Shown piece after piece: positions 4,515 through 45,652 of a DNA stretch of 64,000 bases; position 1 is the stretch's first letter, and every line of letters starts with the position of its first letter. Below the pieces are notes generated by a model. It saw only the letters and a list, made by a program, of their open reading frames with translations, ran no database searches and was not told the origin of the DNA. The stretch comes from Heptranchias perlo. Its lineage: Eukaryota. Location of the stretch: contig NC_090329.1 in NCBI RefSeq assembly GCF_035084215.1, forward strand, positions 42,036,001 through 42,100,000, given 5' to 3'. The translations under genes were made by a program, and so were the position numbers.

Positions 4515-6710
4515 TCTACTTTTTGTGGAGAGGATATTCTTGGGCAATTTTCGACATTGTCAGGTAAATGCCAGTGTTGTAGCTGTACTGGAATAGCTTA
4601 GTTAGAAGCACAGCTAGTTCTTGAGCACAGGTCTTCAGCACTACAGTTGGAATATTGTCGGGGCCTGTAGCTTTTACTGTGTTCAGTGCACTCAGCCGTT
4701 TAAGAACATAAGAACTAGGAGCAGGAGTAGGCCAATCGGCCCCTCGAGCCTGCTCCGCCATTCAATAAGATCATGGCTGATCTGATCCTAACCTCAAATC
4801 TAAATTCATGTCCAATTTCCTGCCCGCTCCCCGTAACCCCTAATTCCCTTTACTTCTAGGGAACTGTCTATTTCTGTTTTAAATTTATTTAATGATGTAG
4901 CTTCCACAGCTTCCTGGGGCAGCAAATTCCACAGACCTACTACCCTCTGAGTGAAGAAGTTTCTCCTCATCTCAGTTTTGAAAGAGCAGCCCCTTATTCT
5001 AAGATTATGCCCCCTAGTTCTAGTTTCACCCATCCTTGGATGCTCAGTTTTGAGCTGCTAGATCTGTTCCTAATCTATCCCACTTAGCACAGTGGTAGTG
5101 CTATCCTTTGATGTCACGTGGAGTGAATCAAATTGGCAAAAGGCTGACATCTGTGATGGTGAGGTCCTCAGGAGGAGGCCGAGAAGGATCATCCACTCGG
5201 CATTGCTGGCTGAAAATGGTTGAGAATACTTCAGCCTTGACTTTTGCACTCATGTGCTGGGCTCCACCATCATTGAGGATGGGGAGTTTCATGGGGCCTC
5301 CTCCTCTTGTTAGTTGCTTAATTGTCCACCACCATTCACGAGTGGATGTGGCAGAACTTTGACTTGATCCATTAGTTGTGGGATCGCTTAACACTGTCTA
5401 TAATATGTTGTTTCTGCTGTTTAGCATCGCATGTAGTCCTGTATTATACCTTCACCAGGTTGGCATCTCATTTTCAGGTACGCCTGATGTTACTCTCGGC
5501 ATGCTCTTCTGCATTCCTCATTGAACCAGGGTTGGTCATCTGGCTTCATGATAATGGAGGATTAAGGGATATAACTGGCCATGAGGTTACAGATTGTGTT
5601 GGAATAAAATTCTGCTGTAGGTAATGGCCCACAGTGCCTCATGGATGCTCAGTTTTGAGCTGCTAGATCTGTTCCTAATCTATCCCACTTAGCACAGTGG
5701 TAGTGCTATATGATACGTTGGAGGGTGTCCTCAGTGTGAAGATGGGACTGGTCTCCATAAGGACCAAGAGGTGGTCACTCCTACCAACGCTGTCATGAAG
5801 TGACGCATTTGCGACAGGTAGATTGGTGAGGACGAGGCCAAGGAGGTTAATCCCTCGTGTTGGTTCTCTCACCACATGCTGCAAGCCCCAATCTGGCAAC
5901 TATGTCCTTCAGGACTCGGCCAGCTTGGTCAGTGGTGGTACTACCGATTTATTATTGGTGATGGACATGGAAGTCCCCACCCAGAGTACATTCTTTTGCC
6001 CTTGCTACTCTCAGTGCTTCCACCAAGTGATGTTCAACATGGAGGAGTACTGACCCATCAGCTGAGGGATGGCAGCATGTGGTAATCAGCAGGAGGTTTC
6101 CTTACCCATGGTTGACCTGAAGCCATGAGACTTCATTGGTCTGGAGTCAATGTTGAGGACTTCCAGGGCCACTCATCACAACTGTGCCTCCAACTCTGAT
6201 GGGTCTCTCCTGCTGATAGGACTGGACATACCCCTGGATGGTGATGGAGGAGTGTGGTCATTGGCTGATAGGTATGATTCTACAAGTCTAGCAGCTGTTC
6301 CAACTTTGGCAGAAGTGTCCTGATGTTAGTAAAGAGGACTTTGCAGGATCAACTGTGCTGAGTGTGCCCTTGTCATGTCCTGATTCAGTGATTAAATTGC
6401 AGCCAAGTGGTCAGTCCATTCTTTTTTTATTCTTTCTAGCGGTATGAGTTACTTGCTATGCCATTTCGGAGGGCAGTTGGTGTGGGATTGGAGTCACATA
6501 TAGGGCAGACCTGGTAAGGATGGCAGATTTCCTTCCCTAAAGGGTATTAATGAGCCAATATGGGTTTTTATGATAATCCGTCAACTTTGTGGTCACTTTT
6601 ACTAATGCCAGCTTTTTATTTCCAGATTTTTTAAACAGAATTCAAATTCTCCAACTACTATGGTGGGATTTTAACTTGTCTTCCCTGGATTACTAGTCCA
6701 GTAACATAAC
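4515..6710 (-). mobile_element. Older Zenon-like LINE: tRNA-like 5' head, APE endonuclease and start of RT; interrupted by a CR1 at 4701-5036
   Basis: Homologous to 44290-45650 (LGLVLTNLPVANASLHDSVGRSDH; GPDNIPTVVLKTCA). The last ~15 bp of the head are displaced to ~7637-7650 by the 6711 element. Confidence 0.85.
4701..5036 (-). mobile_element. 5'-truncated CR1 (HER1-like) 3' end
   Basis: Translation TRGHNLRIRGCSFKTEMRRNFFTQRVVGLWNLLP. TTCTTATG-type octamer tail. Confidence 0.9.
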
Positions 6711-7636
6711 GACCCAGAAATTGCTGGTGCGATGCATCTTGCAGCGAGCGCTATGAATGGGAATTCTTACCTCACCCTTAAGATCGTATTATTTTTAAAG
6801 CGCCAAATGCTGGAAATGTGAAATGATAACGGTGCGGTGATGTCAAAGGAGCATCTGGAACCTTCTGAACGTTGGGTCCAATGGTCTATCTCTTTAACTA
6901 ATAAAATTTAAGGATAGAGAAAGAAACAGAGCGAACGTTGGAGAAGGGTAAATGAGAGTCCAATTAGCTAGAATTCTACTAGTAAAGGACACTTAAATCT
7001 GTCTGCCAGACGCATGTGAGAGGTGATACTGCTGTCAGGAGAGTCTGCAGTTCATCCATTCCATTTCCTAAACGAAGCAAAGAAATGGTAATGGTGGAGG
7101 GAATTCTAATTTAAAAGGAAGTGGAAGGGAAGGGCTACATCACCATAAATCAATCCTGCCGTGGAAGTTTAGAAATCAGAGAGGAATTTAATCTAAGAAA
7201 CAGAAATAAAGAGAAGGAATGAAAAAGATTGGATTAAGAGAGAGAGAATAAAGAGACAGAAAGGAAAAGTAAGAAAAAAATTTAAAATTTATAAAAACCT
7301 CTAGCAACAATTTATTACATGCATGAGTGAGACTCCATAATTTTAATTGTTCCTTTTCTGGGCCTCCAAGTGGTTTGTCAGGACTATAAATCATGTCATT
7401 AACAGTGTCCTTACGACATGAATTACCAGCCGTAAATGGCTGCAGATGAGTTTAATTTGTATTAATGGCATGAATCCAGCAATTTCATGACAAAACAGTG
7501 AGGAGGCTTATGGTGAGATGGTAAATTTTTTTTGGTTTGGTGTATTTCTTCTTCGCCACAAATTGCTGGGTTTTTTACACACTAATAACGGCGAGTGCTG
7601 TGAACTCGCCATTGTTTTTCCAGCAATTTCTGGGCC
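6711..7636. mobile_element. Non-autonomous Harbinger-type element
   Basis: TIRs GACCCAGAAATTGCTGG / CCAGCAATTTCTGGGCC; TSD AAC/AAC; homologous along its length to 26009-26570. Confidence 0.85.
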
Positions 7637-7778
7637 AACAACTATTCCATCTTCTGTTCTAATGTGGAAGATATACATCTCTTCCCTTCGTGATTTAGGA
7701 ATGCGTACACACCCAAGTCCCCGTGACTGTACTAGAGACAGTATGTGTCGGAGTCCCTGGTAACCTATTAAAATATAT

Positions 7779-7968
7779 GAGGGTAATTTTGACTTTGTGC
7801 GATGGTGAGAAACACGTGATAGTGAATCAGCAGTTTGTTTTACATCTCTCCCGATTTTGATTTCAATGGAAATAAAAAAATAGAAATAAAAATCGGGAGA
7901 GATGTAAAACAGGCTGTCAATTCACTATCACTCGTTATACACCATCACACAAAGTCAAAATTACCCCC
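7779..7968. mobile_element. Palindromic MITE
   Basis: GAGGGTAATTTTGACTTTGTG / CACAAAGTCAAAATTACCCCC, with near full-length inverted arms. Confidence 0.85.
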
Positions 7969-8046
7969 TCTTTCTCGGCCCAGCAACCAGCACTCATTAT
8001 GATCGCAAATGCTTAAAATGCAGTACAGTACTGTGGTCTCCCATCT

Positions 8047-8263
8047 GAATTCTACTAGTAAAGGACACTTAAAACTGTCTGCCAGACACGCGTGAGAAGT
8101 GATACTGCTGTCAGGAGAGTCTGCAGTTCATCCATTCCATTTCCTAAGCAAAGAAATGGTAATGGTGGAGGGAATTCTAATTAAAAAGGAAGTGGAAGGG
8201 AAGGGCTACATCACCATAAATCAATCCTGCCATAGAAGTTTAGAAGTCAGGGAGGAATTTAAT
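8047..8263 (+). repeat. ~220-bp segment duplicated in direct orientation at 6971-7192
   Basis: The two segments align with few substitutions and small indels. Confidence 0.95.
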
Positions 8264-10759
8264 ACACTGTAGAGCAGTCTTAATAGTTATTTTCCTGAGC
8301 AGGAAGATTGGACTGTACACAGGTGTCTGGTGCAACAATAGTTCTGCAGTTGTACAGTCTGCAGCAGAACAGCTGAGGTAATGTTGCGTTGGCTTATATG
8401 TTGTTTTTTTCCAGATGTACAACTCCCCATTATTCTGTAGCTGTTAGAGTTGAGAAAGATTTTTTTTTTAAATGTTGTATTCATGAATTTTCAGCATTCA
8501 TAAAGATACATAACATGCTGAAGGGAGGAAAGGAAACTAGGCCATAAAAATATTGGCTGGGGTGAACAATTCAACAATGAAAACTTATGCCGCAAAACCA
8601 AAAAGTTAACAGTGCCAACTTTATAGATTATCTGAAACACTCGCTAATCACCTGTGGCATTGCTCAGAGACTCTAACATCTGGAGCACTGTTGTGTTGTT
8701 CATTGCTAACCTGGACTGTCCCTTTAAGACCAGTGCTCAAATATTGCCACTGGGAATCCAGGCAGTTGTAACTGCTTAGAAATTGCTCTGACCAATTAGA
8801 AGTCAGTAATTTGCTTGTAAATTTCAGATTCCAGGTTCATTCCTTCCTGTTTTTTTGTAAGATTATTTTGCATCTGTAACAAACTGATATCCGAAGGTTG
8901 ATTTTCCTCCTCCCCCCTCACCTTGGCTGGACACTAGTCAGACAGGGCTCACTCAAAAATACGTTCCACTAGATATGACCTGAACTCATTTGGATTTGCA
9001 GATTCCGGTCTTTAACCAAGGCCAGATATTCCCCCAGCACAGGCCCAGCCCCAAGGCAGGGCCTTGAACCTGAAGATGGGGCAGAAATTCAACCATTGTT
9101 GCAGGCCTGAGAAACCAGCAGCCAGAAGGCTTCCAGTCCCAAGAAGCCACTGGGTACCTGTAGAAAAAAGGTGGCACTTACCATTTTAGGGCTCCATTGC
9201 CTTGCTGCCTGTGCCTTTCAGATCCTCCGATCGGAGTGTTGGGAGGAGGGAGGTGGGGGGGTTGCAAGGCCTCCTGCCAACTGCTTCCGTGAGGGAGGAA
9301 TCTTGGTCAGCAGGAAAGGTATTGGATGGACTGGGCTGTGAACTTCCTTAATGCTGGGAGGGAAGATTCTCTACAACTCAACGAATAGTCATACACTGTT
9401 TGCTCAGCCTCGGCACTTCCATCCACTATCAATAAATCTACTGCTCTTTGCCTTCTGTATTTGTCCATCACACTTCCGTTTCTTGTTCAGGGGTGTGGGA
9501 CCATATCTTGCTCAGCACGGGAATGGGGTTTGCGGGCTAAAATATTGCTGAGGGGATAAAATGTAGCTCAGTGGGGGTTAATATCTCACTTAGAGGAGCG
9601 ATATGTCTGCTCAGTGAATCCTCCTGATCTCTTGGACAGTTTATGGATTTCCAGTAGCATGATTTTTATCCAAAGGGTTGATGCTTGTGATTGCTGTGTG
9701 CTCAATGAGAAACTGTCACATGACCTTAGGTGCAGCTCCACTTTAATGAATTGGTCATGTAATGTTAAGCTTATGGCATCACCTACAGGTGCAATACCTT
9801 TAGCGTCTCGAGAAAATTAATTGTTTTTAATATAAAGCAGATCTAGTAGTGAATCTCCTACTGCATTGCTCATAGTAGCCCCGATTTTTACCCTGCCCGT
9901 CTGAAAGGTGGGCAGGGTAAATAATGGTAGAGCACTATAATTGCTGCATTGGTGAGGTGCTCCCACCCACTGCCATTTTAATCGGACACTTTTCGGGGGT
10001 GGCAGAGGCGCTCAGCGCAGGCAGGTGGGGTTCTCATGAATGTGGCGCAGATTGGGCTTTGGGGAATTAGGAAATTGGGCAGAGAACCCAATCGCCCAAT
10101 GCATACCCAGAATGTACTTCTGTGGGGGGAAATAAGGAAGGCGGACAAAGCCCTCACTAAAAGCAGGCGGCAGTTTCATTACAACGTTAAAATCATTCTC
10201 AATACAATGCAGACAAGCGCAGATGCACTTTCCCCTGATTTTCACTGAGAACGTGCTGTATGTTAGCCTTGTTCGTATAAGCCTATCCAAGGAGGGCCGT
10301 TTAGCACTGACAGGAAGTCAACATTTAAATGGGAGACCAATAATTCCAAGAGCTACAATTTGAAATTGTAACTTGAGTGCAGAGTTGTGATACAGGATAC
10401 AGGAAATTTTCACTGCTCTTTTTGTACAAGGTCATTTTTCTAGATTTTTGGACAAGAGTTTTGGCAAATATATTTTTAGTTGAATTATCTATATGGTTAC
10501 GTTTGGCAAGTTAGTGGTCCAGATGTGGAACCTCACTTGACAGGTCAGATGTACAATTGGGTTTAGAAATCAACATTTCCACTATGCAGCCTTTCCAATT
10601 TGTCAGTTACTGGAGCACTGACTTGAAAATTTACCCCATAATTTACAATATTGGAATCCATTATATTCCTGTTATTTGTAGGAAAGGGGAGGAGGAAAGG
10701 AGCAATGCCAGGCAAGTCAGTCTGTGATGAACTGCCAACACCCACTGTCATCTACGGAC

Positions 10760-12635: not shown

Positions 12636-12805
12636 GGGGGTGAAATTCAACTTCAGTGGGAGCACATAACCGGCAGTAGTAAATTGGCCATCTTACACCC
12701 TGCCAGTTTTATCCCTTTCCATTGACTTCAATCAGGCAGGGTGCATAACAGGCGGCCGATTCACCAGCACCCATTTTGCGCTGTCCTGAAGTTGAATTTC
12801 ATGCC
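12636..12805. mobile_element. Palindromic MITE (diverged)
   Basis: GGGGGTGAAATTCAACTTCAG / CTGAAGTTGAATTTCATGCC with inverted arms. Confidence 0.7.
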
Positions 12806-14330: not shown

Positions 14331-17300
14331 TGGAGAAAATGGGGAAAGAAAATAAATGATGAAAACCTATCTTCTTCTATGCTTTGACTGTTACAGTTTG
14401 CCCCGGTGAAGCATAAACAGAATGACCATGCACATTCTAAAACAAACAGTTCATGTCAAATATATTTTACCTCTTTTGTGTGTCGAAAGAGTCTCTTAAT
14501 GAGTAAGAGGCATAGAGGACAAAAGCTCTGGGGTGTGTTTGTTTTCAAGGTGTGCACAGAGATAGGTCAGAGGATGGGGAACATTAAGCTTTTGTATTCA
14601 TCGTGCTGAAATTAAAAATGGTATCATGGAAACGGCCTCAAATAACATCAAGTGGTTTATGTGTGTGTAGGATTCTATGGAATGTTATGTTACACTGAGT
14701 GATGTCATCGGATGGTGTTTTTTAGTTTAGCTTTGGTTAACCAAATATTGAGAGGTTTGTGTGCACGGAGTCCTGTTGGATATTAAGTGGTGTAAGAGAG
14801 CCGTTTGGCTTTCAGTCAAAATTCCTCCTCTTCCTGCTGGATGCTGCACAATGCTCGCTTGTATCTGAAAACAAGGTGGAGGATTGCTATTTGCCAGGAG
14901 CTTGCACATGGCCTATAAGGTTACATCGAAGATAAGACGATTCTGTTTGCGGTGTTGACGTCTATGCTCCCAGGCTTCCACTTTCCCATTGCGCTGACAG
15001 GGCTGATGGTAATGACATTATGCTGTAAAGTGACAGGCTCTATTTGCTCTGTGTCTGTGCAGTTCCTGAGGTGTTCTGGGAAGTTTGCCAATTTTTCTCT
15101 ACAAAGGCAGCTTCTCATTAGGATGAGCTTAGGTTGAGCAATTTCTTGGTATAAGAGACATGACTGTGATCATCCTTGCCACAAACTGGTTATGCAACTG
15201 CCTTAATAACTATAACACCTTCATTTTTCTTAAATTAGAAGGAGAACACAAAAGAAAGTTTGATTGGTAGCTGAAATGAAAATGTGCCCTTTCACTTTCT
15301 GCAAAGGGTCTTTTTGCAAATATTCAGAAGGCAGCTCAGTTACTGGAGACAAGAGGCTTTGGGCTCCCAGCCAGAGTGCTCAGGTTTGAATCCCAGTCTC
15401 CGCTGACGCTCAAACATGTCTGCCCTCTCTGGACAGCTTTTATCGGATCTCAGTCAGCCTCCCAGTGGTCCACATTGAGCGGAAGTACAATGCTCTGGTG
15501 CGCAGTGAGAGAAAACTATCAATCTCACGTTGCAGAAGTTCACCGCCTGTTGGTCACCTCCAGTGTGGTGTTGATGGTGATTTATAAAAGAAATTTGCCA
15601 TTACAGCACTCCCATGTATAAAGGCTATCACATATGAGAGAATTCCTGTTTTTAACATGGTAATTGGATAGCCTCATTCAGATGAGCAAGAAAACAGCCT
15701 GGCAAAACCTATGATTCCATAAGGTTTTGTGCCATGAAGAAAATACAGAGGCCTGGAACCCAGAAAACATGCACCGAGATCAGATTTTCTAAGAATTTTA
15801 AACTGCTATCATTTTAAAATAACAAAGGAAATAATATCAGAGATCTAAATGAACACTTGGCATGCAGCTGTTGTCTTATTAAGTGGGCCCAGATTTGCAG
15901 CATGTGACTAAAGCTAAGTAGGAGTTTAACATATTTTTGGTCAATTTTCTCCCCTTTCTGCTCCTTCTCTGAAGTATATTATGTATATGTTTGTTACAAT
16001 TTTCTGGTTTGCGTTAGATATTTTCTTGCATTCAGTGGTGCTGGTCACTCCCATAAGCTGTCTTATGTTCAGGGATATGCACCATATTTAATCATATGAT
16101 AGAATAACCCAGGGGGAGCAATAATTAGTTAAACCTTGTGATCTAAACTGGATATTGTGTCTTTCACATGTGCCCTCATTTGTGCTTCTCTAGTCTTTCA
16201 GTAGATTGACTGAAAACACTTTAGTGAGACGAGGACAGATATGAATCGTTATAATCAAAACTCACTTACTTCACTTAACTTCAAACCCTTCTTCGTGAAT
16301 ATGAAAAATGATAAACCACGCTGCCTTGCCCTGGGTTAGTGGGCTGACTATTTCTTGCTTCGATCAGTCGAGCATAGAAACAGACCAAGGCCTACAGTTA
16401 ACTGCCTTTCTTGCCTTTTTCTCAGAAGACCATCTTGACTGATCGACCTTGAACATGGGTTTTTCACTTTTTTGTTACTTGTGACAGCAGGAAGTGAATG
16501 TCTGTCTCTCCAAATTATTCCCCGCTCAGTGATTCACTGGTAGGCCTGTCAGTACAAACAGCTATTTTGCCTCCCACAAAAGCGGATTCTTAGCAGATAC
16601 TCCATTCTAGGTTCAAATGAATAAGTTATTCCAGAGAAAATGGCTGTCTGTGATTGTAGGAAGCATGAGATGAGATCACAAATTAACTATTGTCCCTGGT
16701 CATTGTGTAAACACATTTTCAATGTCAGGCACATTAACACTTAAATGCCTATTTGTCTCAGTGACTACGGCATATGGCCGCATCATGTTTTAGGATTTTT
16801 GACTACTTTCCACAGAAAGGATATGGAAAATAGTTATATTCAAATGTTTGATTTTTTTTTAAAGCAAAGTGTATTCACACAAATTTTAAAGAACAGAGCA
16901 CTGAGATGAAAGGTGGTTAAAATGCTAATGAACTAGGCATTCCCACAAAGACTGTAAACAATGCATAATTAAATAGCCTGCCTGGCAATTGATAAACACC
17001 TCACAACTATTGTGTTGCTGTGTTCTTGGTTCCAAGTGCTTGGCAGGAGATATCTGGCATAAGCTCTCCTGTTGGCCTGTGACGATAAAAGCAGAGACAG
17101 AAACACTCACTGACGGTCAGGTTATTAAAACAGAAAGTTGCAAGAGCAAGCCGTCACCAGGCTCAGAAGAATACAATGCAGGAGGATAGCTAGAAGTTAT
17201 GTGATTTAAGTGGAGTGCTCATTATTTTGTATTATTATGTGAAAATGAGTTGTACTGATCAAATTAAATGAGCCTGATCATAAACTGTTGCTCTGAACAT

Positions 17301-27469: not shown

Positions 27470-28371
27470 GTTCCACAAATAGAAACACAACTAACGTTGG
27501 AAACCTCACATTGTTGAATGAACTTGCTTAGCAGTAAAAGTACCATGTTAATACATATTGATATTATTCAATGTTTGCCATGTCTGTGAGTCACAGAGCT
27601 GGAACTGGAACAAGCTTCATCAAAAACAATTGGCTGGGAGATTTGCTTTCCAAATCAAATGCCTGACTTTCACCAAATGGGAGTATTCAAGCACACATAA
27701 TAGTCCCAATTATAATTACAAACAAAATTACCATTGAGAGCCCCACAGTTATTCTAATACATTTCACAGCAGATTTGCAGCATAGCTGTTGAATAACAAA
27801 ATTAATCTCATATTTGAGGAGCGACCTATGCAACTCATTGCCACCTGTGATGTGAAGAAATGATTGGATTCCTATTATGTGTGGGAAGCTGGTTCCAGCT
27901 CAGTGACTCACTGACAGTGCAAACATAGAACAATATTAACATATGTTAACATTGTGCTTTTACTGCTTAGCACCAGGTGCAACATTGGAGCAGCAAATGC
28001 ATTCAACAGTAATAAGTTGGCAATCTGAATGTGTATTTTATATTGAATGCAATTTATATTTTATGTGTATATATATAATGACTGTGCCGTCTGCTGCAAG
28101 GACACCATGGGTTGGGCACTGTCTGTGGCAGTAATGATCATGTTTTCTTTTGCCGGCATCCTTCTAGGCATGCTGCAATGCTGCCCAATGAAAAAGACAA
28201 CTTGGAGTGGAAAGCAAGGCCACCATCATCCCTACTGCCTTATTCTTCACCAGTTCCACTTTGCCGTTCGTGAAACAAAGGTTGGACTGTTGAACCGTTG
28301 CATCATTTGGCCTCAGACTAAGTTTCCTGCCTCCCCATTAATGATGCCAAGCATTTTTGTTCGCCAAGCAT

Positions 28372-29847
28372 TTTAAAGGAAGAGAGAGAGGTAGAGAGGT
28401 GGAGAGATTTAGGAAGGGAATTCCAGAGCTTAGGGTCTAGGCAGCTGATGGCATGGCCGCCAATGGTGGAGCGATTAAAATTGGGGATGCGCAAGAGGCA
28501 AGAATTGGAGGAGCGCAGAGATCTCAGAGGGTTGTAGGGCTGGAGGAGGTTACAGGTAGGGAGGGGCAAGATCATGGAGGGAATAGAAAACAAGGATGAG
28601 AATTTTAAAATCGAGGCGTTCCCGGACAGGAAGCCAATGTAGGTCAGCAAGCATAGAAAAGCAGTATATGATTTAAATGGAGAGAGATTGCAGAACTCTG
28701 AGGTACAGAGGGATCTGGGTGTCCGAGTACATGAATCACAAAATGTTAGTATGCAGGTACAGCAAGTGATTAGGAAGGCAAATGGAATGTTGTAAGTTAT
28801 TGCAAGGGGAATGGAATATAAAAGTAGAGATGTTTTGCTACAGTTGTACAGGGCATTGGTGAGACCACATCTAGAATACTGTGTGCAGTTTTGGTCTCCT
28901 TATTTAAGAAAGGACATAATTGCTTTAGAGGCGGTTCAGAGAAGGTTCATTCGACTGATTCCTGGGATGAGGGGGTTATCTTATGAGGAAAGGTTGGACA
29001 AGTTGGACCTGTATACATTGAAGTTCAGAAGAATGAGAGGTGATCTTATTGAAACATATAAGATCCTGAGGGGACTAGAAGGGGTAGATGCTGAGAGGAT
29101 GTTTCCCCTTGTGGGAGAGACTAGAACTAGGGGCCACAGTTTAAAAATAAGGGGTCTCCCATTTAAGACGGAGATGAGGAGAATTTTTTTCTCTCAAAGG
29201 GTCGTGAGTCTGTGGAACTTCCTTCCCCAGAGAGTGGTGGAGGCAGGGTCATTGAATATTTTTAAGGCTGAGTTAGATAGATTCCTGATTAACAAGGGAG
29301 TCAAAGGTTATAGTAGGTAGACGGGAAAGTAGGGTTGAGGTCACAATCAGATCAGCCATGATCTTATCAAATGGCAGAGCAGACTCGAGGGGCCGAATGG
29401 CTCTTAATTCATATGTTTGTATGTTCGTACGTATATATGGGGTGATGGGTAAACAGGACTTGGTATGAGTTAGAATATGGACAGCAGAGTTTTGGATGAG
29501 CTCCAGTTCATAGAGGGTGGAAGATGGGAGGCCGGCCAGGAGAGCATTGGAATAGTCAAGTCCAGAGGTAACAAAGGCATGGATGAGGGTTTCAGCAGCA
29601 GATGGGCTGAGGCAGGGGCGGAGATGGGCGATGTTACAGAGGTGAAAGTAGGCTGCCTTGGTGATGGAGTGAACATGTGGTCGGAAGCTCATGTCAGGGT
29701 CAAATAGGACGCCAAGGTTGCAAACGATCTGGTTCAGCCTCAGGCAGTGGCCAGGGAGAGGGATGGAATCGATGGCTAGGGAACGGAATTTGTGGCAGGG
29801 ACTGAAGACAATGGCTTCGGGCTTCCCAGTATTTAGTTGGAGGAAAA
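28372..29847 (-). mobile_element. L2 LINE fragment interrupted by a CR1 (28657-29430)
   Basis: SFRPHVHSITKAAYFHLCNIAHLRPCLSPSAAETLIHAFVTSGLDYSNALL and KLWNSLP; homologous to 52630-53330. Confidence 0.9.
28657..29430 (+). mobile_element. CR1 (HER1-like) 3' portion
   Basis: ORF 28811-29320: LYRALVRPHLEYCVQFWSP...TRGHSLKI...FFSQRVVSLWN. TTCGTATG-type tail. Confidence 0.95.
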
Positions 29848-29999
29848 ATTTAGGTGTGATGAGCGCACTAGTGGTTGGAGTCGTGCTAATAACGGAGGCC
29901 AGATTGGAAAATCTACTACACTGAATACAATAAAAATATTAGACGGCTTTGTAATTACAACCAATAATTTTATCCCCCTACACGCTCATATACCTTTAA

Positions 30000-30405: not shown

Positions 30406-31516
30406 TTAAGTGGCTCAATCCCTTTAAATTTACCCATCACCCATTGTGAACAGCTATTTAAGTAGCCCTTTAAGTGCTGCTTAAACACGATTTCCTGCTC
30501 CTCTGGCAAGCTCCCAATGTGATGCCCAAAATGGAGCCAGGAGTTCACCCACACTATGCAAATGAAGCTGACCCTAAGATTTAGGTGTGATGAGCATGCT
30601 AACGGTTGGAGTCATGCTAATAATGGAGGCCGGATTGGAAAATCTACTACCCCGAATCTAAACAGCACTGTTTCGTTATCAGAATACTGACGCTTTTGAG
30701 AAATCCAAAGAAAGTCCAAGTTACAAACAGTAAATCCAAGGCATAGAAATTGGAAAGGTTTTAGCCCCTAACAGTTCTTTGTTTATTCGGATATTACTGC
30801 GATTGAAATAATTTTAATAAAACTCCAGAGACCCTTTTTGGTTTTTTTAACAAAACATCCAACATTTTTAAAGAGGCTCATTTAGGTGTGTTTACATGAT
30901 AGACTATTTTAAAAACTGCAGAGGACATTCAGTACTTGGAAGTGTGTTGAGAACATAATACATGAAAGCTTAATTCATGTACCTTATATCTTCCTAAGAC
31001 TAAGCTTGTGTGAACTCTACATCTTCGTAAGATTTCCGTTCATTCTAAATCATTTGTTTACACTGTACAACTGCATGACTCACTCCATCAGCCATCTGTC
31101 CGTCGGCAGAGCATGTACATGTACTGTAATGTATTGTATTGTCAGCACCGTGGATGGATCAAGAACAATAGGCGAGGAAGGTAAGTGGTATTAGGTACAG
31201 GGCAGCTTCTAATCAGCTTTTGTCAACATCATCAGAATTTAGCCTACTTACCCGAGTTCTGCCCAGTTTTATTCTTACTGCTGCCTAGTGAAAATGCAAT
31301 TATGTAAGATGAGGATTATATAAATAGTAGAAAGGTCAAGGCTATTCAATACTTTAAAAAAAAATTGAACCCAATTTAAAGAAAAAACAAGTGCAAAAAG
31401 TGCAGGCAAACCTCAAGCATGTATTGCAACTTGTTTTTGGGGAACCACAGAACGATTATCTTCCCCTTTCCAGCCTAGTAATACTGAGATTAATTGTTGC
31501 ACCTCTCAAAGCACTA

Positions 31517-32115: not shown

Positions 32116-32149
32116 GGACCTCTCTCAAGGGTTCTCCTTGGCTGTGGAC

Positions 32150-33660
32150 CTGTCACTCATTCCATGCTGGACTGTGATTTTACAAATCCTTCATATATTG
32201 CTACAGGGATATCAGTGCTGCACTTCTGCAGAGTCTCTGCTATATCATGGACGGTGCTCTGAACATTCTCAAAGCATTGCATAAAGTGTTTTTGCTCTAT
32301 AGGCAGGCATCTAGTGTGCAGGGGGATATCTAGGCCTGGGCCTCTCTTTTGCTGATACCTGTTCCTCTACTGCCACCTCTATTTGCCCCTTCTGAGTTGT
32401 GCTGAGTGCTTCACCAATTGCTCCCTCCTAACCCTGACTAAGTGAACTCTCTGAGGTGGATGTATCTAAGCTGGCGCTTGTGCGTACAGGAGTGTGCAAT
32501 TGGTGCTTGTAGAGTAAACCAGCTTCCTGATGCCCTCCAGTGCCAGGTACAACATCTTGGAGGACCCCGGTGAAAGGTAAAAGGAAAACTATGTTGCGTG
32601 TATGAAATAGCTGGGCACAGAGGGGTAAAAATTCAGTTTCTCCATTGAGAGCACAAAATTGTAAAATTTCACACCTCAATTCCATTTTCTCTGGCCATTA
32701 AAATTCAATAAAAATCGAGAGCTAATGGTCCACTATTTTGCAATAACTAGAAATTCTACTCCAGAATTCCCAGACTAATACACTGATTACCGAACTACTG
32801 TTGTGCAGAATGAGCCTGGATCTTAGTGAGTGAGTGAGTTTCAAGGAGGTCCAAGAAGAAGTGAAGCAGAACACTTGCCTCATTGAACTGTCACAAAGCG
32901 GCCAAACTCTCTCTCACACATACTCTCATTCACCGCCACTCCAACTATTTGCAGGGCTGCCTTCGCATGTCAAGTCTCTAGAGGTTGGTAGGGCTGCCAC
33001 CAGTCCTTGGTATCTCCTTTAAAGCCAGACAATAGATTCAGGTGCTGGCATTTGGAGGAGCAGAGAGTGCCAGCCCAGTGTCCAGCCTATGCCTCACCTT
33101 GTGTGAGTGAATGACAAAGAAACATGCAACTAATTTCAGGTCCCAGTTTCAATTAGTACTACAGTATGCAAACATTAGGTGTGATGTTGGAAGCATGTTT
33201 AGATGTCAGCCACAAAGTTTGCCCAGCAGCGTTAGGAACATAAAAGTATAGCTGTGAAAGATATGAAAGATTGTCATTGCTTCCTGGCCCCTTTGCTGAT
33301 GCTGCACCATGCTTGGGGGCACAGCACTTACAGCATGCAGACTATGGCTAGACACTATATTCGGACTGGCAAAGTGTGGACACACTTACCTTGGCACTCT
33401 TCCTCAGGTCAGAGAACTGCTCATCCCATGACCTATGGCCGTAGGAGACAGCACTGACTTTATGAGCCACTTTCTGCCATGTTTGCTGCACATTGTGATG
33501 CAGAGGAGGGCTCCCTTCAGCCTCAAATGTGCCTATTCCTTTGTTGCACCTCCTACAGCAGACCATCTAAACTTTCTTCATCAAAGGGGACATTGCTGGC
33601 CCAATTCCTTTGTCCAATCTTCCATTGCTGGCAGATTTTATGGAGCCAATAGCTTGAAGT
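32150..33660 (-). pseudogene. Highly decayed Harbinger Myb/SANT gene region
   Basis: TWQKVAHKVSAVSYGHRSWDEQFSDLRKSAK followed by donor gtaagt near 33389. The downstream extent is a guess. Confidence 0.5.
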
Positions 33661-34205
33661 GAGAGATGTGGCCTGTTAAGTGCCACCACTCTTCAGATAG
33701 TTCATTCTCTATCAATTATAGTGGTCCCTCTGCGCTGGGAAAATGCACAAGGAACATATTCAAATAATATGCATTACTTGACCTCGCTGAATCCAGCATG
33801 GCCATCGTCTTGCTCCAGTAGTGCAGAGCTTCAGAAGAATGCAGCGGTCCTGGCACCATCTCAGCTTGGAACGCTGAACTGGCTCTATCTGTATTGCTTA
33901 GGATGAGCAGTTCTCTGAGCTGAGGAAGAGTGCCAAGGTAAGTGTGTCCACACTTTGCCAGTCCAAATATAGTGTCTAGCCATAGACTGCATGCTGTAAG
34001 TGCTGTGCCCCCAAGCATGGTGCAGCATCAGCAAAGGGGCCAGGAAGCAATGACAATCTTTCATATCTTTCACAGCTATACTTTTATGTTCCTAACGCTG
34101 CCGGGCAAACTTTGTGGCTGACATCTAAACACGCTCCTAATATCACACCTAATGTTTGCATGCTGTAGTACTAATTGAAACTGGGACCTGAAATTAGTTG
34201 CATGT
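33122..34205. repeat. 305-bp inverted repeat (33122-33426 / 33901-34205) with a 474-bp spacer
   Basis: About 9 mismatches by manual comparison. Near-identical ORFs on opposite strands (MKDMKDCHCFLAPLL...). Confidence 0.95.
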
Positions 34206-35347: not shown

Positions 35348-35657
35348 TGACCTCAAAAATAATCCCTTTGGATTTTGTGCTTAGAAACGCATTTTGTAAT
35401 TTTGTGAATTGTTTCTCAAACGCATTTGCAGCCATTGTGGAGAGTTTAGGTTTCTGCCATGTGCCTGTAATGAAGCCATTTTAATCTCTTTTTTGCTTGT
35501 TTGGAATAGGAGGGAAAATCTAACTTTCACATAACAAACACCTTAACTCTAGTAGTTAAGGCAGAAGTGTCTTCCCCTCACAACCTGCAGGATAACCCTC
35601 CTCCACCTCAGTCTGCTTATGAAAACTGCCATCTAACTGTGAACACAGCAAAAGCAT

Positions 35658-35834
35658 GGGGTAATTTTAACTTTTGGCGATATTGTAAGACGAACGATAT
35701 CGGTTCAACCGCCCGTTATACATCTCGTCTGATTTTCCATTCTGCCTTAGAAAGGAAAATCGAGTGGGGTGTATAACGGACAGCCTATCCGCTAGCGTCC
35801 GTTTTACAATATTGACAAAAGTTAAAATTACCCC
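35658..35834. mobile_element. Palindromic MITE
   Basis: GGGGTAATTTTAACTTTTG / CAAAAGTTAAAATTACCCC with inverted arms. Confidence 0.85.
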
Positions 35835-36684
35835 ACACTTTTGCGAAAAGTCTGAACAGTGACATTCTGAAATGCCATTCCGGGACACTATAAATGAACA
35901 GCCCTCTTTCCTATTTATGATGTTACTGAACGTGAACTTTATGATTTCGCTATAGGGAGAGTTCCAGACAGAACAGGGCCAATATATCCTTTGCTCAATG
36001 CTCCATGTGCACCAGTTCCTGAAGAAAATGGGTTGAGACCTGTAACACCAGGTCTCCATCCCAGTGGTACGTGATGTGCATTCATGGCTGGGAGGAGCGG
36101 GCGACAGAAACTCCTGCTTGAAACAGGCCAGAGGTTCATTATCATACTTAAATAACACGTGAACCCTTTTTTGACATCTCCCATGTCTTTTTACACCCTT
36201 TACGCCAGGTCGATAGCAATTGGAAACAATGTCCCCTTTACCTGGGTAGATAGATTGAAAGGGCCAAATTCATGGTTCTTTTAGCAGTTTTGAAGCCATT
36301 TCTGTTTTCTTTTCTCCTGGGACTTAGCTTCTCATGTGCTTTATAGTTTTCCAAGGAAGCTGAGATGACACTAAAATTATATGTATATATGTGTGTCTCA
36401 TAGGTGAAAAGTCTGTTTTCATCATTGCCAAATCAAAGCAAGTTCTATACACCAACCTAGATTTCCTGATCAGGATTGGTAAAAGTGGGCAGAGATTGTA
36501 ATGACAGATTTCTTCTCCAGTTCCTGTGAGTGGGGAACACAGGCTTTGGAACTGCCCGTCTTAAACAGGTGGCAACTTTATTTGTCATTTCCCAATATTG
36601 GGGTGTACATATCGTTGCTAGATCACACGAAATGGCACCCAGAGTTGCTAGGTAATAGTGAATATATGGAAGACCATGTGTTTT

Positions 36685-39508: not shown

Positions 39509-42500
39509 ACCAAAGAAGCTGATATGGATTGTTTGGCCTGAAAAGTCTGAAGTAGCTGAGGCAGTGTTATGTATGGAGATCAGTGAGCCTGCCTTCCAGC
39601 TGAACATATCAGAACATTCATGCTCTGCTCACAATGCCACAGCAACCAGGCAAACATCTCTAAATAAACTTTCTGATAATACAAATTTGCTAAGTGGAAA
39701 ATTTAGAGGCAGGATGGAAGGTAATGGAACACAAGTGCTATGTGCACTACATTAGGCTCCGTCACCTTCCATCCTGCCTCAAAACTTTCCACTCATTGCA
39801 TTTGTGTCAGAAAATTTGTTTTTATAGGGGCCAGGAGGCTCACTTCCTGTTTGTTAAGGTACTAAAGTCACTGCTGTGCTAATTTGTTTAAAATCATTTA
39901 TTAAATCTGACAAATATTTGGTATCATGGGAATGTTGAAAAAAAACATCAGCAGTCCCACAGATTCATGGATGTAACAAGCTGATGCAGGCCCAGGACCC
40001 AGTGGTCAATTAGACATGTAGACTAGATCTTAAAACAAGGGACATTTATTCACCAACATTGTGCCTTTACTTACAGCAATGAACCAGACCACACTAGTTA
40101 TTACTTTCCAGCCATCCTCTCACCAACCAAGCCATTTCCCTGCCTTTTATTCTTACAGGCTGGGAGTCCTCCCTGATTAAAGGCAATTAAGGTCAATGAT
40201 TTCTTAAAGCTATACCACCTTTTATATAACTTCTTAAAGTTGTATCCCTTTCTTGGATATATAGCTCTCAACGTCCTATGGCTTACATATCGTCCCGCTC
40301 TCACTCTGTTACAATGGAGATATCCATCTCAAAGATCTCCATGTCTGAGTTGGATACCTAGATCTTGGAGATATGTACCTCCACTTCTAACATCCACAAT
40401 CTGCTGAATCAGTGTTAGCTGAAGTGGAAATCTTGCTGATTCAGGGACTGAGCAACATAGGGGTATTGATCCTCAATCTTCTGAGTGCTGTTACATCTAA
40501 CATTGGAACATAGAAATTTCAGCCCTCTGGGGGGTGGATTTCAGCTATAGTTGTGGGCAGAGAGGGGGTCAAAATTTTGACTGGAACCTGGTTCTGCTGG
40601 GCTTCTGCCCCCTCTAAGTTACCCCACAAATTCTGCCCCCGGTGGAGGAGGGCAGATGTATCTTCTGCCCACCCCATTTATGTCCCAGAAGCATTTTGGG
40701 AGTTAGTTCCGGGGACTGTTTATAATCTAATGGCTACCTACTGTTCCTTGTGTGGAATAATTAAAACATGTTTCCCTTTGGTCCATTGAACGTTTAGAGC
40801 TCCTCCCATGGAGCAGCCAGGTACAGTTCCAAGCTTCCAGCAGCAGAGCAGGACACGTGGCCCACCTTTTGGGATCAGGTCCAGGCAAGGCCTAAGCAGT
40901 GGACTGCAGTCCCGCTCTGCTACTTGTCCATCTCCTCTTAAAGATCTGCGGAATTTGTAGGCCAGGATCTTGTTTTCTAGAAGGTCTACAGTTAGGGCCA
41001 CGAAGGAAACATGTCGAGCCTACCATAACAGAAGGTTTTGTTTATCTTCTAGATGCATAGTGTTCTGCTCTCAGATATATCAGGGGGCAGCCAAGAGGAG
41101 AGGCACACCACTTGTTCACAGAGCTGCAGAGGAAGGCCGTTGGTACCTATGTACGCCAGCAGCCTGTCTCTGATATCACACAGCCCTGATCACTTTTATT
41201 CTGGTACCTCACAGTGATAGTTTAAGACGCTCCACCGTGGAGTGTTGCTGATATCGTGACCATTCCACTAGTGGCACTGGTACCAGAAAGTGAACACAAA
41301 GGATAGCAACACAGACACATACTCACAGGTTTAGAACAAGTACATTGTTTGAAAAGAGGAGACCATACACACTGTGGGCACATATTTCATATTGTTTATT
41401 TGGTCGCCTTTGCTTGTACTTCAACTATACATGTACTTCTGATTAGGCACAGGGTCACAGTAGATTTGCAAAGGGAAACTGTTGTTGGTGTAGCAAAAGG
41501 AGCTGTTGATTGATTGTGCCTGTAATTGTAATGGACAAGCCTGTTCTCTGCTTCCTATAGTTGCTGGGTTGTTATGATGTGTGACGTGATATCAGCTAGA
41601 TTGATATATGATATTTTTTTACCTTGGCATGGGAGATTCCTTTTAGTGAAATGGGTGGTAATGGCATTTTTCTGAATCTTTCATTCAGCCCACCCCTCAA
41701 TGAAAGAATGGCGGCAGCTATGATATGACAAACATCAGTGTTGCTGTGCTTCTGCTGAGTTTGGAAAAGACTTCAAGCCCTTCATGCTACTACCGATCTG
41801 CACTTAAAGGTGGCAGGTCGATAGGCTACTTAAGCGTCTGAAAAAGGCAATGGTGCCTGCTTAATTGAATCCTCTTCCCCCCTCCTCTCCCGTTAAAGAG
41901 CTTATCTGGTATTTTTTTCTGATAGCTTCAGCAACCTATTTCTAACATCAGAAACAGGCATTGAATTCTTTTACTGTCTGTCCCAATGAAGAATCATATT
42001 GACCCATGTAATATGGCAAATTCTATTTGATTGGAACTGTAGGGAATCCTTATTTCCTATGATTCTTGGAACTGGACGAATAGTCAAGTGAAGAAAGTCA
42101 CCCTCACTCACAGTAGTTTCGTTAATCAAAAGTAATTATTTAATGATGTTATCATTCATACGAGGATTCATGAAGCAAAATCAAAAAGTACATATGACTT
42201 TCCTGTATAAGATCCCATTATACACTTAATAATTTGCAACATTATTATGTAATAACTTAACAATTCATACACACATCAGGTAAATCATTAAATACATATA
42301 ACCTTAAACCAAGGATTTTTCTCATTGAGGCCCGAAGGTTGATCAATGTTTCAGTCTACGAGCTTCTCTTCTTCTTCTGCAATGTTCAACTGCAGTGTGC
42401 GTGGTGGTTCCTTTTGACTGTCATGTGGTGAAGAGACTGTTCTTCTCTCAAAGTCGTCCTTTTATATTGTTCTTACCAATAGGACGTAGGATTGAAGCAT

Positions 42501-42774: not shown

Positions 42775-45652
42775 TTTTTTTTAGTTCACGGGATGTGGGC
42801 GTCGCTGGCGAGGCCAGCATTTATTGCCCATCCCTAATTGCCCTTGAGAAGGTGGTGGTGAGCCGCCTTCTTGAACCGCTGCAGTCCGTGTGGTGATGGT
42901 TCTCCCACAGTGCTGTTAGGAAGGGAGTTCCAAGATTTTGACCCAGCGACAATGAAGGAACGGCGATATATTTCCAAGTCGGGATGGTGTGTGACTTGGA
43001 GGGGAACGTGCAGGTGGTGGTGTTCCCATATGCCTGCTGCTCTTGTCCTTCTAGATGGTAGAGGTCGCGGGTTTGGGAGGTGCTGTCGAAGAAGCCTTGG
43101 CGAGTTGCTGCAGTGCATCCTGTGGATGGTACACACTGCAGCCACAGTGTGCCGGTGGTGAAGGGAGTGAATGTTTAGGGTGGTGGATGGGGTGCCAATC
43201 AAGCGGGCTGCTTTATCTTGGATGGTGTCGAGCTTCTTGAGTGTTGTTGGAGCTGCACTCATCCAAGCAAGTGGAGAGTATTCCATCACACTCCTGACTT
43301 GTGCTTTGTAGATGGTGGAAAGGCTTTGGGGCGTCAGGAGGTGAGTCACTCGCCGCAGAATACCCAGCCTCTGACCTGCTCTCGTAGCCACAGTATTTAT
43401 ATGGCTTGTCCAGTTAAGTTTCTGGTCAATGGTGACCCCCCCCAGGATGTTGATGGTAGGGGATTCGGCGATCGTAATGCCGTTGAATGTCAAGGGGAGG
43501 TGGTTAGACTCTCTCTTGTTGGAGATGGTCATTGCCTGGCACTTACCTGGCACGAATGTTATTTGCCACTTATGAGCCCAAGCCTGGATGTTGTCCAGGT
43601 CGCTGCATGCGGGCTCGGACTGCTTCATTATTTGAGGGGTTGCGAATGGAACTGAACACTGTGCAGTCATCAGCGAACATCCCCATTTCTGACCTTATGA
43701 TTGAGGGAAGGTCATTGACGAAGCAGCTGAAGATGGTTGGGCCTAGGACACTGCCCTGAGGAACTCCTGCAGCAATGTTCTGGGGCTGAGATGATTGGCC
43801 TCCAACAACCACTACCATCTACATTGTCGGGTAGATGCCAGTGTTGTAGCTGTACTGGAACAGCTTGGCTAGAGGCGCAGCTAGTTCTGGAGCACAAGTC
43901 TTCAGCACTATAGCCAGGATGTTGTTGGGGCCCATAGCCTTTGCTGTATTCAGGTATGACTCCAGCCACTGGAGAGTTTTCCCCCTGATTCCCATTGACT
44001 TCAATTTTACTAGAGCTCCTTGGTGCCACACTCGGTCAAATGCTGCCTTGATGTCAAGGGCAGTCACTCTCACCTCACCTCTGGAATTCAGCTCTTTTGT
44101 CCATGTTTGGACCAAGGCTGTAATGAGGTCTGGAGCCGAGTGGTCCTGGCGGAACCCAAACTGAGCATCGGTGAGCAGGTTATTGGTGAGTAAGTGCCAC
44201 TTGATAGCACTGTCGACGACACCTTCCATCACTTTGCTGATGATTGAGAGTAGACTAATGGGGCGGTAATTGGCCGGATTGGATTTGTCCTGCTTTTTGT
44301 GGACAGGACATACATGGGCAATTTTCCACATTGTCGGGTAGATGCCAGTGTTGTAGCTGTACTGGAACAGCTTGGCTAGAGGCGCAGCTAGTTCTGGAGC
44401 ACAAGTCTTCAGCACTACAGCCGGGATGTTGTCGGGGCCCATAGCCTTTGTTGTATCCAGTGCACTCAGCCGTTTCTTAATATCACGTGGAGTGAATCGA
44501 ATTGGCCGAAGGCTGGCTTCCGTGATGGTGGGGATATCGGGAGGAGGCCAAGATGGATCATCCACTCGGCACTTCTGGCTGAAGATGGTTGCAAATGCTT
44601 TAGCCTTGTCTTTTGCACTCACGTGCTGGACTCCGCCGTCATTGAGGATGGGGATGTTTCCAGAGCCTCCTCCTCCCGTTGGTTGTTTAATTGTCTACCA
44701 CCATTCACGACTGGATGTGGCAGGACTGCAGAGCTGTGATCTGATCCGTTGGTTGTGGAATCGCTTAGCTCTGTCTATAGGATGTTACTTCCACTGTTTA
44801 GCATGCATGTAGTCCTGAGTTGTAGCTTCACCAGTTTGGCACCTCATTTTTAGGTATGCCTGGTGCTGCTCCTGGCATGCTCTCCTACACTCCTCATTGA
44901 ACCAGGGTTGATCCCCTGGCTTGTTGGTAATGGTAGAGTGAGGAATATGCCGGGCCATGAGGTTACAGATTGTGCAGGAATACAATTCTGCTGCTGCTGA
45001 TGGCCCACAGCGCCTCATGGATGCCCAGTTTTGAGCTGCTAGATCTGTTCTGAATCTATCTCATTTAGCACGGTGGTAGTGCCACACAACACGTTGGATA
45101 GTGTCCTCAGTGCGAAGACGTGACTTCATCTCCACGAGGACTGGGCGGTGGTCACTCCTACCAATACTGTCATGGACAGATGCATTTGCGACAGGTAGAT
45201 TGGTGAGGACGAGGTCAAGTAAGTTTTTCCCTCGTGTTGGTTCGCTCACCACCTGCCGCAGGCCCAGTCTGGCAGTTATGTCCTTCAGGACTCGGCCAGC
45301 TCGGTCAGTAGTGGTGCTACTGAGCCACTCTTGGTGATGGACATTGAAGTCCCCCACCCAGAGTACATTTTGCGCCCTTGCTACCCTCAGTGCTTCCTCC
45401 AAGTGGTGCTCAACATGGAGGAGGACTGATTCATCAGCTGAGGGAGGGCGGTAGGTGGTAATCAGATGAAGGTTTCCTTGCCCATGTTTGACCTGATGCC
45501 ATGAGATTTCATGGGGTCCAGAGTCAATGTTGAGGACTCCCAGGGCCACTCCCTCCTGACTGTATATCACTGTACCGCCACCTCTGGTGGGCCTGTCCTG
45601 CCGGTGGGACAGGACATACCCAGGGATGGTGATGGAAGAGTCTGGGACGTTG
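42775..45652 (-). mobile_element. Zenon-like CR1-clade LINE, 5'-truncated within the endonuclease; ORF disrupted
   Basis: APE motifs (RGGGTVIY, YRPPS, VGDFN, PTRGKNLLDLVLTN, SDH); RT motifs (RPISLL, AQFGFR, LDIKAAFDRVWH, GVPQGSVLGP, FADD); C-terminus YKAQVRSVMEY; A-rich tail. Confidence 0.95.

Follow-up and report, generated by a model that had tools for sequence, protein, structure and literature searches.

Locally templated insertions in a transposon-rich window of Heptranchias perlo: a known repair scar whose common donor side probably reflects LINE strand and chance

Introduction

Four short stretches in a 64,000-nt window of the Heptranchias perlo genome (the window is the whole stretch of DNA analyzed here) recur in the same orientation 0.5-1.1 kb further to the right. 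The initial annotation saw in them a possibly directional patch-repair signature, and the locus raises the question of whether such a process is new and whether it has a direction.

Repair-mediated duplications, in which a TE is interrupted by a copy of DNA from less than 5 kb away, are described by Pace et al. (2009; PMC2671141), with 824 human cases and others in mammals, chicken and zebrafish. The inserts are at least 50 bp long, averaging 162 bp at an average spacing of 1.2 kb; they vary in age and include two-donor chimeras, and their junctions show microhomology of 2-9, deletions of 1-15 and filler of 1-68 (PMC2671141). As this class was recognized by the same criterion of TE interruption, the process can hardly be called under-described: the window pairs are a known mutational scar, catalogued in vertebrates since 2009. 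Most likely, they arose during the patching of broken DNA or of a retrotransposon caught halfway through its insertion. We consider it likely that the four pairs are locally templated insertions and that their common side reflects LINE strand and chance, not a directional process.

The same orientation of the copies is also covered already by the "doublets" of Thomas et al. from 2004. These are short, local, non-tandem duplications, reportedly collected as exact matches of 25-100 bp with no donor assignment; they are reported to have a spacing of about 1 kb, with most pairs sharing a strand.

Results

Local pairs and their background in the window

Self-comparison of the window confirmed the direct pairs (n = 4) at 5037/5642, 6971/8047, 29848/30579 and 43821/44328, here called E1 to E4, and reproduced their starts and spacings. 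The pairs, their hosts, the junction letters and the LINE strands were read directly from the letters of the window. The list that placed all donors to the right was incomplete, as it lacked a direct pair 2.2 kb apart (E5), two older pairs and the inverted E6, whose donor is on the left. The older pairs are as follows:

2483/2792: 45/53 identical, direction unassigned, outside the polarity count
26641/27123: 63/79 identical, direction unassigned, outside the polarity count

TIR pairs and palindromes were likewise excluded from the polarity count. The window is transposon-rich and consists mostly of TE sequence. An Rfam search of it gave no match, and no convincing host-gene domain was found among the 31 ORFs scanned.

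Strong self-matches were defined as non-overlapping, at least 50 bp long and at least 85% identical. At spacings of 0.3-1.2 kb we found 5 of the 31 such matches against 0.86 expected (P = 0.0015; the band was set post hoc and the matches are non-independent), i.e., within the window there are more close matches than a null of dispersed repeats predicts. Exact 14-mer direct matches formed 18 clusters at 40-5000 bp vs. 1-6 per band in five further 5-kb bands, and inverted ones numbered 13 at 40-5000 bp vs. 4-21 in the further bands. The 14-mer matches 29440/30429 (inverted) and 43726/44578 were treated as chance. At 76-80% identity, 4256/6497 and 39272/42785 were rejected as local copies, regarded as ordinary dispersed ones and kept out of the polarity count.

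Donor and recipient are separated by 375-2079 bp across all six events. E1, E2, E4 and E5 split a TE whose parts are contiguous in another copy, which includes three of the four original pairs; E3 only caps its host, and the host of E6 is undefined. The proposal that the left copy is the derived one holds for E1, E2 and E4, where comparison with another copy of the host TE shows the host carrying on past both ends of the insert, and is likely for E3, where the call is weaker because the copy caps a truncated LINE end. Neither a poly(A) tail nor a TSD was seen on the copied pieces of E1-E4 and E6, while E5, which ends at a LINE 3' tail, is ambiguous. The E1-E5 junctions show putative overlaps (2-4 nt), filler (3-6 nt) and one 11-bp deletion. 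The idea of events of different ages was upheld: the insertions are locally templated, differ in age and have repair-type junctions.

Two copies abut LINE 5' breaks

E1 (5036/5037) and E3 (29848-29851) abut the 5' break of a LINE, and E2, E4 and E6 do not. The features of E1 are:

4508..6257, minus strand: older LINE, host of E1, split at 4701/5108
4702..5036, minus strand: nested 5'-truncated LINE, 3' end left and 5' break right
5037..5104, plus strand: E1 derived copy, 68 bp, abutting the LINE 5' break and followed by 3-nt filler
5642..5709, plus strand: E1 donor, in place in the host LINE and collinear with 45018-45085

The host matches 44282-45645 at 82-86% on both sides of the break. In paralogous high-depth contigs, 4701 is followed by a single C and then by 5108, and by comparison with them the block of LINE piece, copy and filler replaces about one host base. 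The nested LINE piece, which we take to be of CR1 type, is a reverse match to the element at 29112-29401, called plus-strand by tblastn with an RVT_1-bearing ORF. Copy and donor, spaced 605 bp apart, are identical at 68/68 positions. The donor differs from the 45018 paralogue at 8/68 sites and the copy shares these 8, so the diagnostic sites point to a local origin of E1. Paralogous LINE contigs fit as far as 5039, which suggests a 3-nt overlap at the LINE junction.

Insertion of LINE and copy in one event is favored by the clean host site but strained by the perfect identity. The LINE piece shows 3/84 to 10/114 differences from relatives in another organism among the matches listed, and zero mismatches in E1 would have P = 0.03 at 5% and 0.0008 at 10% pairwise divergence. 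Given this identity, LINE and copy can have been inserted together only if the LINE belongs to a younger sub-family or if gene conversion followed.

The features of E3 are:

28367..29851, minus strand: LINE fragment, 5' break right, 3' end missing
29848..29926, plus strand: 79-bp derived copy of E3, which caps the LINE 5' break
30579..30657, plus strand: E3 donor, the only other copy within the window

The LINE fragment, presumably of L2 type, is an 83-85% reverse match to the RVT_1-bearing element 52082-53452, and a plus-strand LINE is nested in it at 28657-29438. Alignment to the 52-kb copy reveals a 4-nt junction overlap (ATTT) at 29848-29851. Copy and donor are identical at 69/79 positions with a spacing of 731 bp, and the 10/79 differences fit the age of the LINE, which diverges from its paralogue by 15-17%. 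Since this LINE lacks its 3' end, E3 could also stem from a later deletion-repair.

These junctions bear on whether the four pairs might be independent double-strand-break patches (SDSA or polymerase-theta type), unrelated to LINE integration and with a side set by pure chance. The identity of E1 appears younger than the adjoining LINE, E2 needs no LINE, TE hosts are expected by default because the window is mostly TE, and p = 0.125 for four of four is not small, all of which would suit such patches. However, E1 and E3 begin exactly at LINE 5' breaks, two coincidences that are unlikely for random breaks, and the E1 host resumes about one base from the LINE insertion site. We consider independent patches rather unlikely.

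A copy in a MITE-like element, and read data

E2 involves the following features:

6713..7634, no strand: MITE-like non-coding element with terminal inverted repeats, host of E2
6971..7192, plus strand: E2 derived copy, 222 bp, no LINE involved
8047..8263, plus strand: E2 donor, single-copy DNA

The host has 15-bp inverted ends (6713-6727/7620-7634), and its second copy at 26010-26575 is without the insert. CTA flanks E2 on both sides, with little or no host loss, and copy and donor are 93.2% identical with one 5-bp indel and a spacing of 1076 bp. E2 is likely a simple repair-mediated duplication that arose where the MITE was broken.

Reads were checked for positions 4000-9000, covering E1 and E2, in four of 20 listed runs, all of them contigs; runs X1 and X4 come from a single sample, on which the assembly itself may be based, and are non-independent. 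Depth was 36 (X1) and 4 (X4) in the E2 recipient bin 7006-7172 vs. thousands to millions over TEs, and 18-20 in the donor bins 8008-8341, and a third copy is absent from the window. Among the matches listed for this region, no contig spans the E1 or E2 recipient junction, as might be expected if the pairs, above all the 100%-identical E1, were assembly artefacts. We find this extremely improbable, as separate X1 contigs lie over the E2 recipient (7023-7174) and donor (7939-8128), E2-E6 differ from their donors mostly by transitions, like aged copies (E3-E6 counted), and a misjoin would hardly be expected to leave an insertion site as clean as that of E1.

Copies of LINE and Harbinger-like DNA

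E4, E5 and E6 comprise the following features:

42775..45645, minus strand: younger LINE that is both host and donor of E4, with frames for reverse transcriptase and endonuclease
43821..43953, plus strand: E4 derived copy, 133 bp, in place of about 11 bp of LINE
44328..44460, plus strand: presumed E4 donor, in the same LINE
54637..54783, plus strand: E5, 6-nt filler, 125-bp LINE 3' end and 15-bp second piece
56762..56970, plus strand: E5 candidate donor(s), young LINE with a 541-aa open frame
33901..34205, plus strand: E6 derived copy of 305 bp in inverted orientation, with a left-hand donor
33122..33426, minus strand: E6 donor, in one unbroken stretch with the Myb/SANT exon of a Harbinger-like element

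The E4 LINE gives RVT_1 and Exo_endo_phos_2 hits and is 89-97% identical to copies at 1-986 and 19491-21109, both of which lack the insert. The right junction has a 2-nt overlap (AG). Copy and presumed donor, spaced 507 bp apart, are identical at 128/133 positions with five transitions, and these 5/133 differences fit the age of the LINE (3-6% between family copies). The diagnostic-site test found no shared-derived site linking E4 to its neighbor.

E5 splits a minus-strand LINE with no loss. Its pair 54643-54767/56846-56970 is identical at 122/125 positions at a distance of 2.2 kb, and its 15-mer has exactly one further occurrence in the window, at 56762. E5 is ambiguous between a local patch and a retroposed copy.

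E6 matches the reverse of 33122-33426 at 296/305 positions (97%) and carries no more of the Myb/SANT exon than its last 16 codons; the window has no third copy. The donor exon was recognized by Myb_DNA-bind_5 (E = 6.5e-4, short of the curated cut-off), by BLASTP to the 51-kb Myb ORF (E = 2e-6) and by tblastn (33515-33384).

E3, E4 and E5 might instead be dispersed or retroposed repeat pieces that lie near a relative by chance, E4 perhaps inherited from a source LINE in which the duplication was already present. The donors of E4 and E5 belong to young LINEs of high copy number, the end of E5 coincides with a LINE 3' tail, E4 shares no derived site with its neighbor and the identity of E3 falls within the range of dispersed copies. 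Set against this are the short-distance excess of matches, the eight donor-specific sites shared by E1, the two-copy state of E2 and the lack of a third copy of E3 or E6 in the window, and we judge the explanation unlikely.

The common donor side

Right-side donors in four of four pairs correspond to p = 0.125, and five of six, with E5 and E6 included, to p = 0.22. E1 and E3 are at the 5' ends of minus-strand LINEs and E4 is inside one, so LINE strand likely sets the donor side of these three. The four pairs are thus non-independent. The window holds 8 plus- and 11 minus-strand LINE pieces, which makes three minus-strand hosts unremarkable. LINE strand leaves the donor side of E2 and E6 unexplained.

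A regional process that follows replication-fork or transcription direction over tens of kilobases would also give a common side, as in the four original pairs and in 5/5 direct copies if E5 is local. The human table of PMC2671141, in the parts available, contains two three-event same-side clusters, on chr17 and chr7. However, its donors lie upstream of the recipient in 421 and downstream in 403 cases (n = 824), and neighboring events have the same donor side in only 10/20 (<=64 kb), 12/32 (<=100 kb), 31/71 (<=300 kb) and 105/212 (<=1 Mb). For the intronic rows of table parts 1-4, the donor is 3' of the acceptor in the sense of transcription in 59/107, given the assumed gene strands (PMC2671141). 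This re-count shows donor side without regional coordination there, although as a null for polarity it comes from primates, a different lineage from Heptranchias perlo. Donor side is recorded in the table, but a word search of the available PMC2671141 text found it analyzed nowhere. With the left donor of the inverted E6 in the same window, no host gene found among the 31 ORFs and no human side bias or concordance, the directional claim fails; a regional process is very unlikely, and a common donor side is probably not a rule.

Discussion

The junctions in the window are within the ranges of repair-mediated duplications, the sizes and spacings agree with the proximal class of these, and all six events have a donor more than 50 bp and less than 5 kb away (PMC2671141). 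Only one other copy of the donor exists for E2 and, within the window, for E3 and E6, whereas the donors of E1, E4 and E5 lie in repeats, which the PMC2671141 filter drops as a stated limit of the method. Because the filter also needs TE on both sides, E2 alone would be countable. At the rates given there (0.08-0.65 per Mb of TE), a window would be expected to hold no more than 0.04 events, and the species listed include no cartilaginous fish (PMC2671141). The density of local copies in this one window looks high. Our literature search, with most subscription papers outside it, found no paper on templated insertions at TEs in sharks.

LINE 5' junctions are a separate documented source of templated filler. 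L2-clade LINEs often carry extra 5' nucleotides templated from the flanks (Yamaguchi, Kajikawa, Okada; PMC4245944, PMC4760211). E1 and E3 resemble these L2/CR1 extras in their flank-copied filler, truncated LINE, short overlaps and little target loss. However, the published extras are described as several nucleotides long (PMC4245944, PMC4760211), while E1 and E3 measure 68-79 bp and come from 0.6-0.7 kb away, their templates being found in the 5'-side flank at distances of 605 and 731 bp. For L1, too, there are reports of insertions that carry extra DNA copied from close to the target (PMC11702581). There a retrotransposon insertion is joined to a copy of nearby DNA, but these human cases are from cell models and have TSDs and poly(A), whereas the window holds non-L1 LINEs as germline fossils with almost no TSD. 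The initial patch-repair reading is thus borne out in its local templating and repair-type junctions, but it missed the LINE 5' junctions at two of the four pairs.

In the general scheme, a free DNA end would copy 68-222 bases from 0.5-1.1 kb away and then rejoin. E1 and E3 may represent bridges formed as the 5' ends of minus-strand LINEs were joined to the target. Here, the LINE cDNA would grow rightwards from the left flank, leave its RNA, anneal by 3-4 nt to the right-hand flank, copy a short tract and rejoin the break end. This geometry would yield a direct copy with its donor on the 5' side of the LINE, here the right. E4 could be the same kind of jump within one minus-strand LINE, during or soon after insertion. 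We infer the annealing steps, their timing and the enzyme, perhaps the reverse transcriptase itself, perhaps a repair polymerase of the host.

Long-range bridges at LINE 5' ends may be frequent in this lineage. It would be a bolder claim, and one we think improbable, that CR1/L2-type insertions here often end by a bridge copying 50-150 bp from 0.5-1 kb in the 5' flank. If the bridge reading is true, a strict rule of direct copies with the donor on the 5' side of the LINE would follow, the density of local duplications would be far above the mammalian and zebrafish figures, and much of the ~1-kb "doublet" class there would stem from LINE integration as a main source.

Collectively, the window offers tidy examples of a known scar in a lineage outside the 2009 survey, with no function implied. 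If the LINE-strand rule and the density were to extend genome-wide, such fossil junctions would show how LINE 5' ends are joined in the germline, still a poorly understood step, and how far the flank is opened (~1 kb).

Local direct copies

Four direct pairs had been singled out in the initial annotation as templated duplications, each with an inserted copy and a nearby donor, and self-BLAST recovered all four:

5037-5104, copy of donor 5642-5709 (E1); direct, 68/68 identical
6971-7192, copy of donor 8047-8263 (E2); direct, 222 bp, 93.2% identity
29848-29926, copy of donor 30579-30657 (E3); direct, 69/79 identical
43821-43953, copy of donor 44328-44460 (E4); direct, 128/133 identical

Among 31 non-overlapping self-matches (≥50 bp, ≥85% identity), five are spaced by 0.3-1.2 kb, a band set post hoc, against 0.86 expected (P=0.0015). 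The fifth is an inverted pair that had not been listed. Direct exact 14-mer matches spaced by up to 5 kb fall into 18 clusters, compared to 1-6 per band in five further bands. Local copying is therefore real and exceeds the dispersed-repeat background in this window. Two other direct pairs were seen: 26641-26720/27123-27202 (63/79, ~480 bp apart) is older and is either one more local duplication or a decayed MITE fragment; 2483-2535/2792-2843 (45/53, 309 bp apart) probably represents internal repeats of a LINE 5' region. Both stand outside the donor-side count.

Transposable element setting

The window is animal DNA rich in TEs. A domain scan of ORFs identified reverse-transcriptase and endonuclease frames of LINEs, and DDE_Tnp_4 and Myb/SANT frames belonging to Harbinger-like elements; among the 31 ORFs scanned there was no convincing host gene, and Rfam gave no match within the window. 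Elements with inverted ends are numerous (self-BLAST and 14-mer matches). Of the 19 merged LINE intervals, 11 are on the minus strand. The LINEs are probably of CR1 and L2 type, and the repeat content looks shark-like. Individual features include:

48900-51800, 21570-23140, 58400-62100 and 33100-33900, Harbinger-like elements whose DDE_Tnp_4 and Myb/SANT frames have decayed to varying degrees
4073-4256, 7781-7966, 35648-35844, 12641-12801, 39662-39821 and 27525-27972, short MITE-like elements with inverted ends, alike in several
19149-21574, nested LINEs: an older plus-strand element into which a plus-strand LINE of a different family (19491-21109) has inserted
20888-21035, ~150-bp insert in a LINE 3' end, lying between the two units of a 12-bp direct repeat; its last 108 bp (20928-21035) form a perfect palindrome and may be the folded-back end of a small element
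15280-15621 (+), 113-aa frame with a weak Pfam PH_FT_C match (E=0.003, below cut-off), taken as chance

Anatomy of the individual events

In E1, an older minus-strand LINE is broken at 4701/5108 by a block consisting of a 335-bp 5'-truncated minus-strand LINE, the 68-bp copy and a 3-nt filler, in that order. Since paralogous contigs join 4701 and 5108 with a single C between, this 406-bp block replaced ~1 base. All 8 sites that distinguish the donor from the paralogue at 45018 are present in the copy, which was therefore templated by its local neighbour. Paralogous LINE contigs fit 3 bases into the copy, and the sequence suggests a short overlap at this junction. Among the matches listed, relatives in another organism depart from the LINE piece at 3/84 to 10/114 sites, and zero mismatches in E1 have P=0.13, 0.03 and 0.0008 at 3, 5 and 10% divergence. 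A perfect copy adjoining a diverged LINE piece counts against the two being a single event.

The E3 copy caps a minus-strand LINE at its 5' break via a 4-nt overlap, and the copy's divergence (10/79) is similar to that between the LINE and its paralogue (83-85% identity). This LINE has no 3' end; a short direct repeat at its left junction (28344-28374) looks like a microhomology-type deletion scar.

In E4, a 133-bp piece stands in place of ~11 bp of a minus-strand LINE; its presumed source is in the same element, 507 bp further on, and the right junction has a 2-nt overlap. Both other LINE copies in the window lack the insert. Copy and donor differ by five transitions, matching the 3-6% spread of the family, so E4 may be as old as the LINE insertion itself. 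No diagnostic site ties the copy to this neighbour. The copy is in frame with the LINE reverse-transcriptase at the right junction (43819-44694, minus strand; open to 291 aa, then a stop), a joint expected one time in three by chance.

The E2 host is an element with 15-bp inverted ends that carries the 222-bp copy; the other copy of this element, at 26 kb, has no such insert. In two sequencing runs of the matching organism, depth is 18-20 over the donor, i.e., single-copy, and 36 and 4 in the recipient bin, compared to thousands to millions over TEs. Given these low depths, E2 is not a mobile element. Aligned over the donor (7939-8245), one contig from one of the runs shows five gap letters, a hint of a heterozygous 5-bp indel; it may represent a donor haplotype retaining 5 bp present in the recipient.

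Two cases were missing from the initial annotation:

54637-54783, insert splitting a minus-strand LINE without loss, candidate donor(s) 56762-56970 (E5)
33901-34205, inverted copy of 33122-33426, 296/305 identical (E6)

The E5 insert consists of a 6-nt filler, a 125-bp LINE 3' end (122/125 identical to 56846-56970) and a 15-mer that occurs once more, at 56762. Either local patching in two pieces or retroposition could account for E5, the latter because the copied piece ends at the natural tail of the LINE. A young plus-strand LINE lies at 55266-56984; its RVT_1 frame runs uninterrupted for 541 aa, and its tail is an 8-bp tandem. For E6, only the left copy continues into the Myb/SANT exon, while the right one holds the last 16 codons only; the donor therefore lies to the left, and the copy is inverted.

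Donor side

The shared position of the donors, on the right in all four listed pairs, had been read as possibly directional. This is not supported, as neither 4/4 (p=0.125) nor 5/6 (p=0.22) departs from chance and neighbouring human events are not concordant. Our re-tally of all 824 rows of Table S1 of Pace et al. (2009; PMC2671141), which matches the footer exactly, gives 421 upstream and 403 downstream donors. Adjacent events share the donor side in 10/20 cases within 64 kb, 12/32 within 100 kb, 31/71 within 300 kb and 105/212 within 1 Mb. In genic rows of table parts 1-4, with presumed gene strands, the donor is 3' in 59/107 (p=0.33). Two same-side clusters of three (chr17 and chr7) occur, as chance allows. 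These primate data lower the likelihood of a directional process in the Heptranchias lineage.

Proposed mechanism

In the established TPRT model, as outlined in PMC4760211, priming of first-strand cDNA takes place at the left flank for a minus-strand LINE, and the cDNA extends rightwards. The cDNA could detach from its RNA, pair by a few bases with the exposed right-hand flank, copy a short tract of it and rejoin the break end, which would leave a direct copy with its donor on the right. E1 and E3 have the anatomy of such a jump, and E4 that of a like jump internal to the element; three of the four events are thus linked to minus-strand LINEs. E2 and E6 are ordinary break patches, with donors on opposite sides. 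We infer the annealing steps, timing and polymerase of the jump. The most far-reaching reading, that this lineage often bridges LINE 5' ends over long range under a strand rule, seems unlikely.

Relation to known classes

The annotation had proposed an under-described process, but the pairs fall in a known kind. By the same criterion, a TE interrupted by a copy of DNA <5 kb away, Pace et al. (2009; PMC2671141) report 824 human duplications with a mean length of 162 bp and a mean spacing of 1.2 kb, with a peak that they flag as a possible TE-marker artefact; they count 80 in zebrafish and 6 in chicken, and connect such duplications with the doublets described by Thomas et al. (2004). E1 and E3 are also alike in kind to the templated 5' extras of L2-clade LINEs, although the accounts in PMC4245944 and PMC4760211 describe these as short, and to templated genomic DNA at L1 insertions (PMC11702581).

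The rates of Pace et al. correspond to ≤0.04 cases per window, compared to one strictly comparable case here (E2 alone passes their full filter) and 4-6 in a wider sense, in a window picked for this feature and with filters that differ from theirs. No paper on templated insertions in sharks was found in the literature searched. A slow substitution rate, as in sharks, would keep old copies visible. Given the selection, the filters and this possibility, the high density is a lead and not a result. The copies in this shark window are real, new examples of an already known class.
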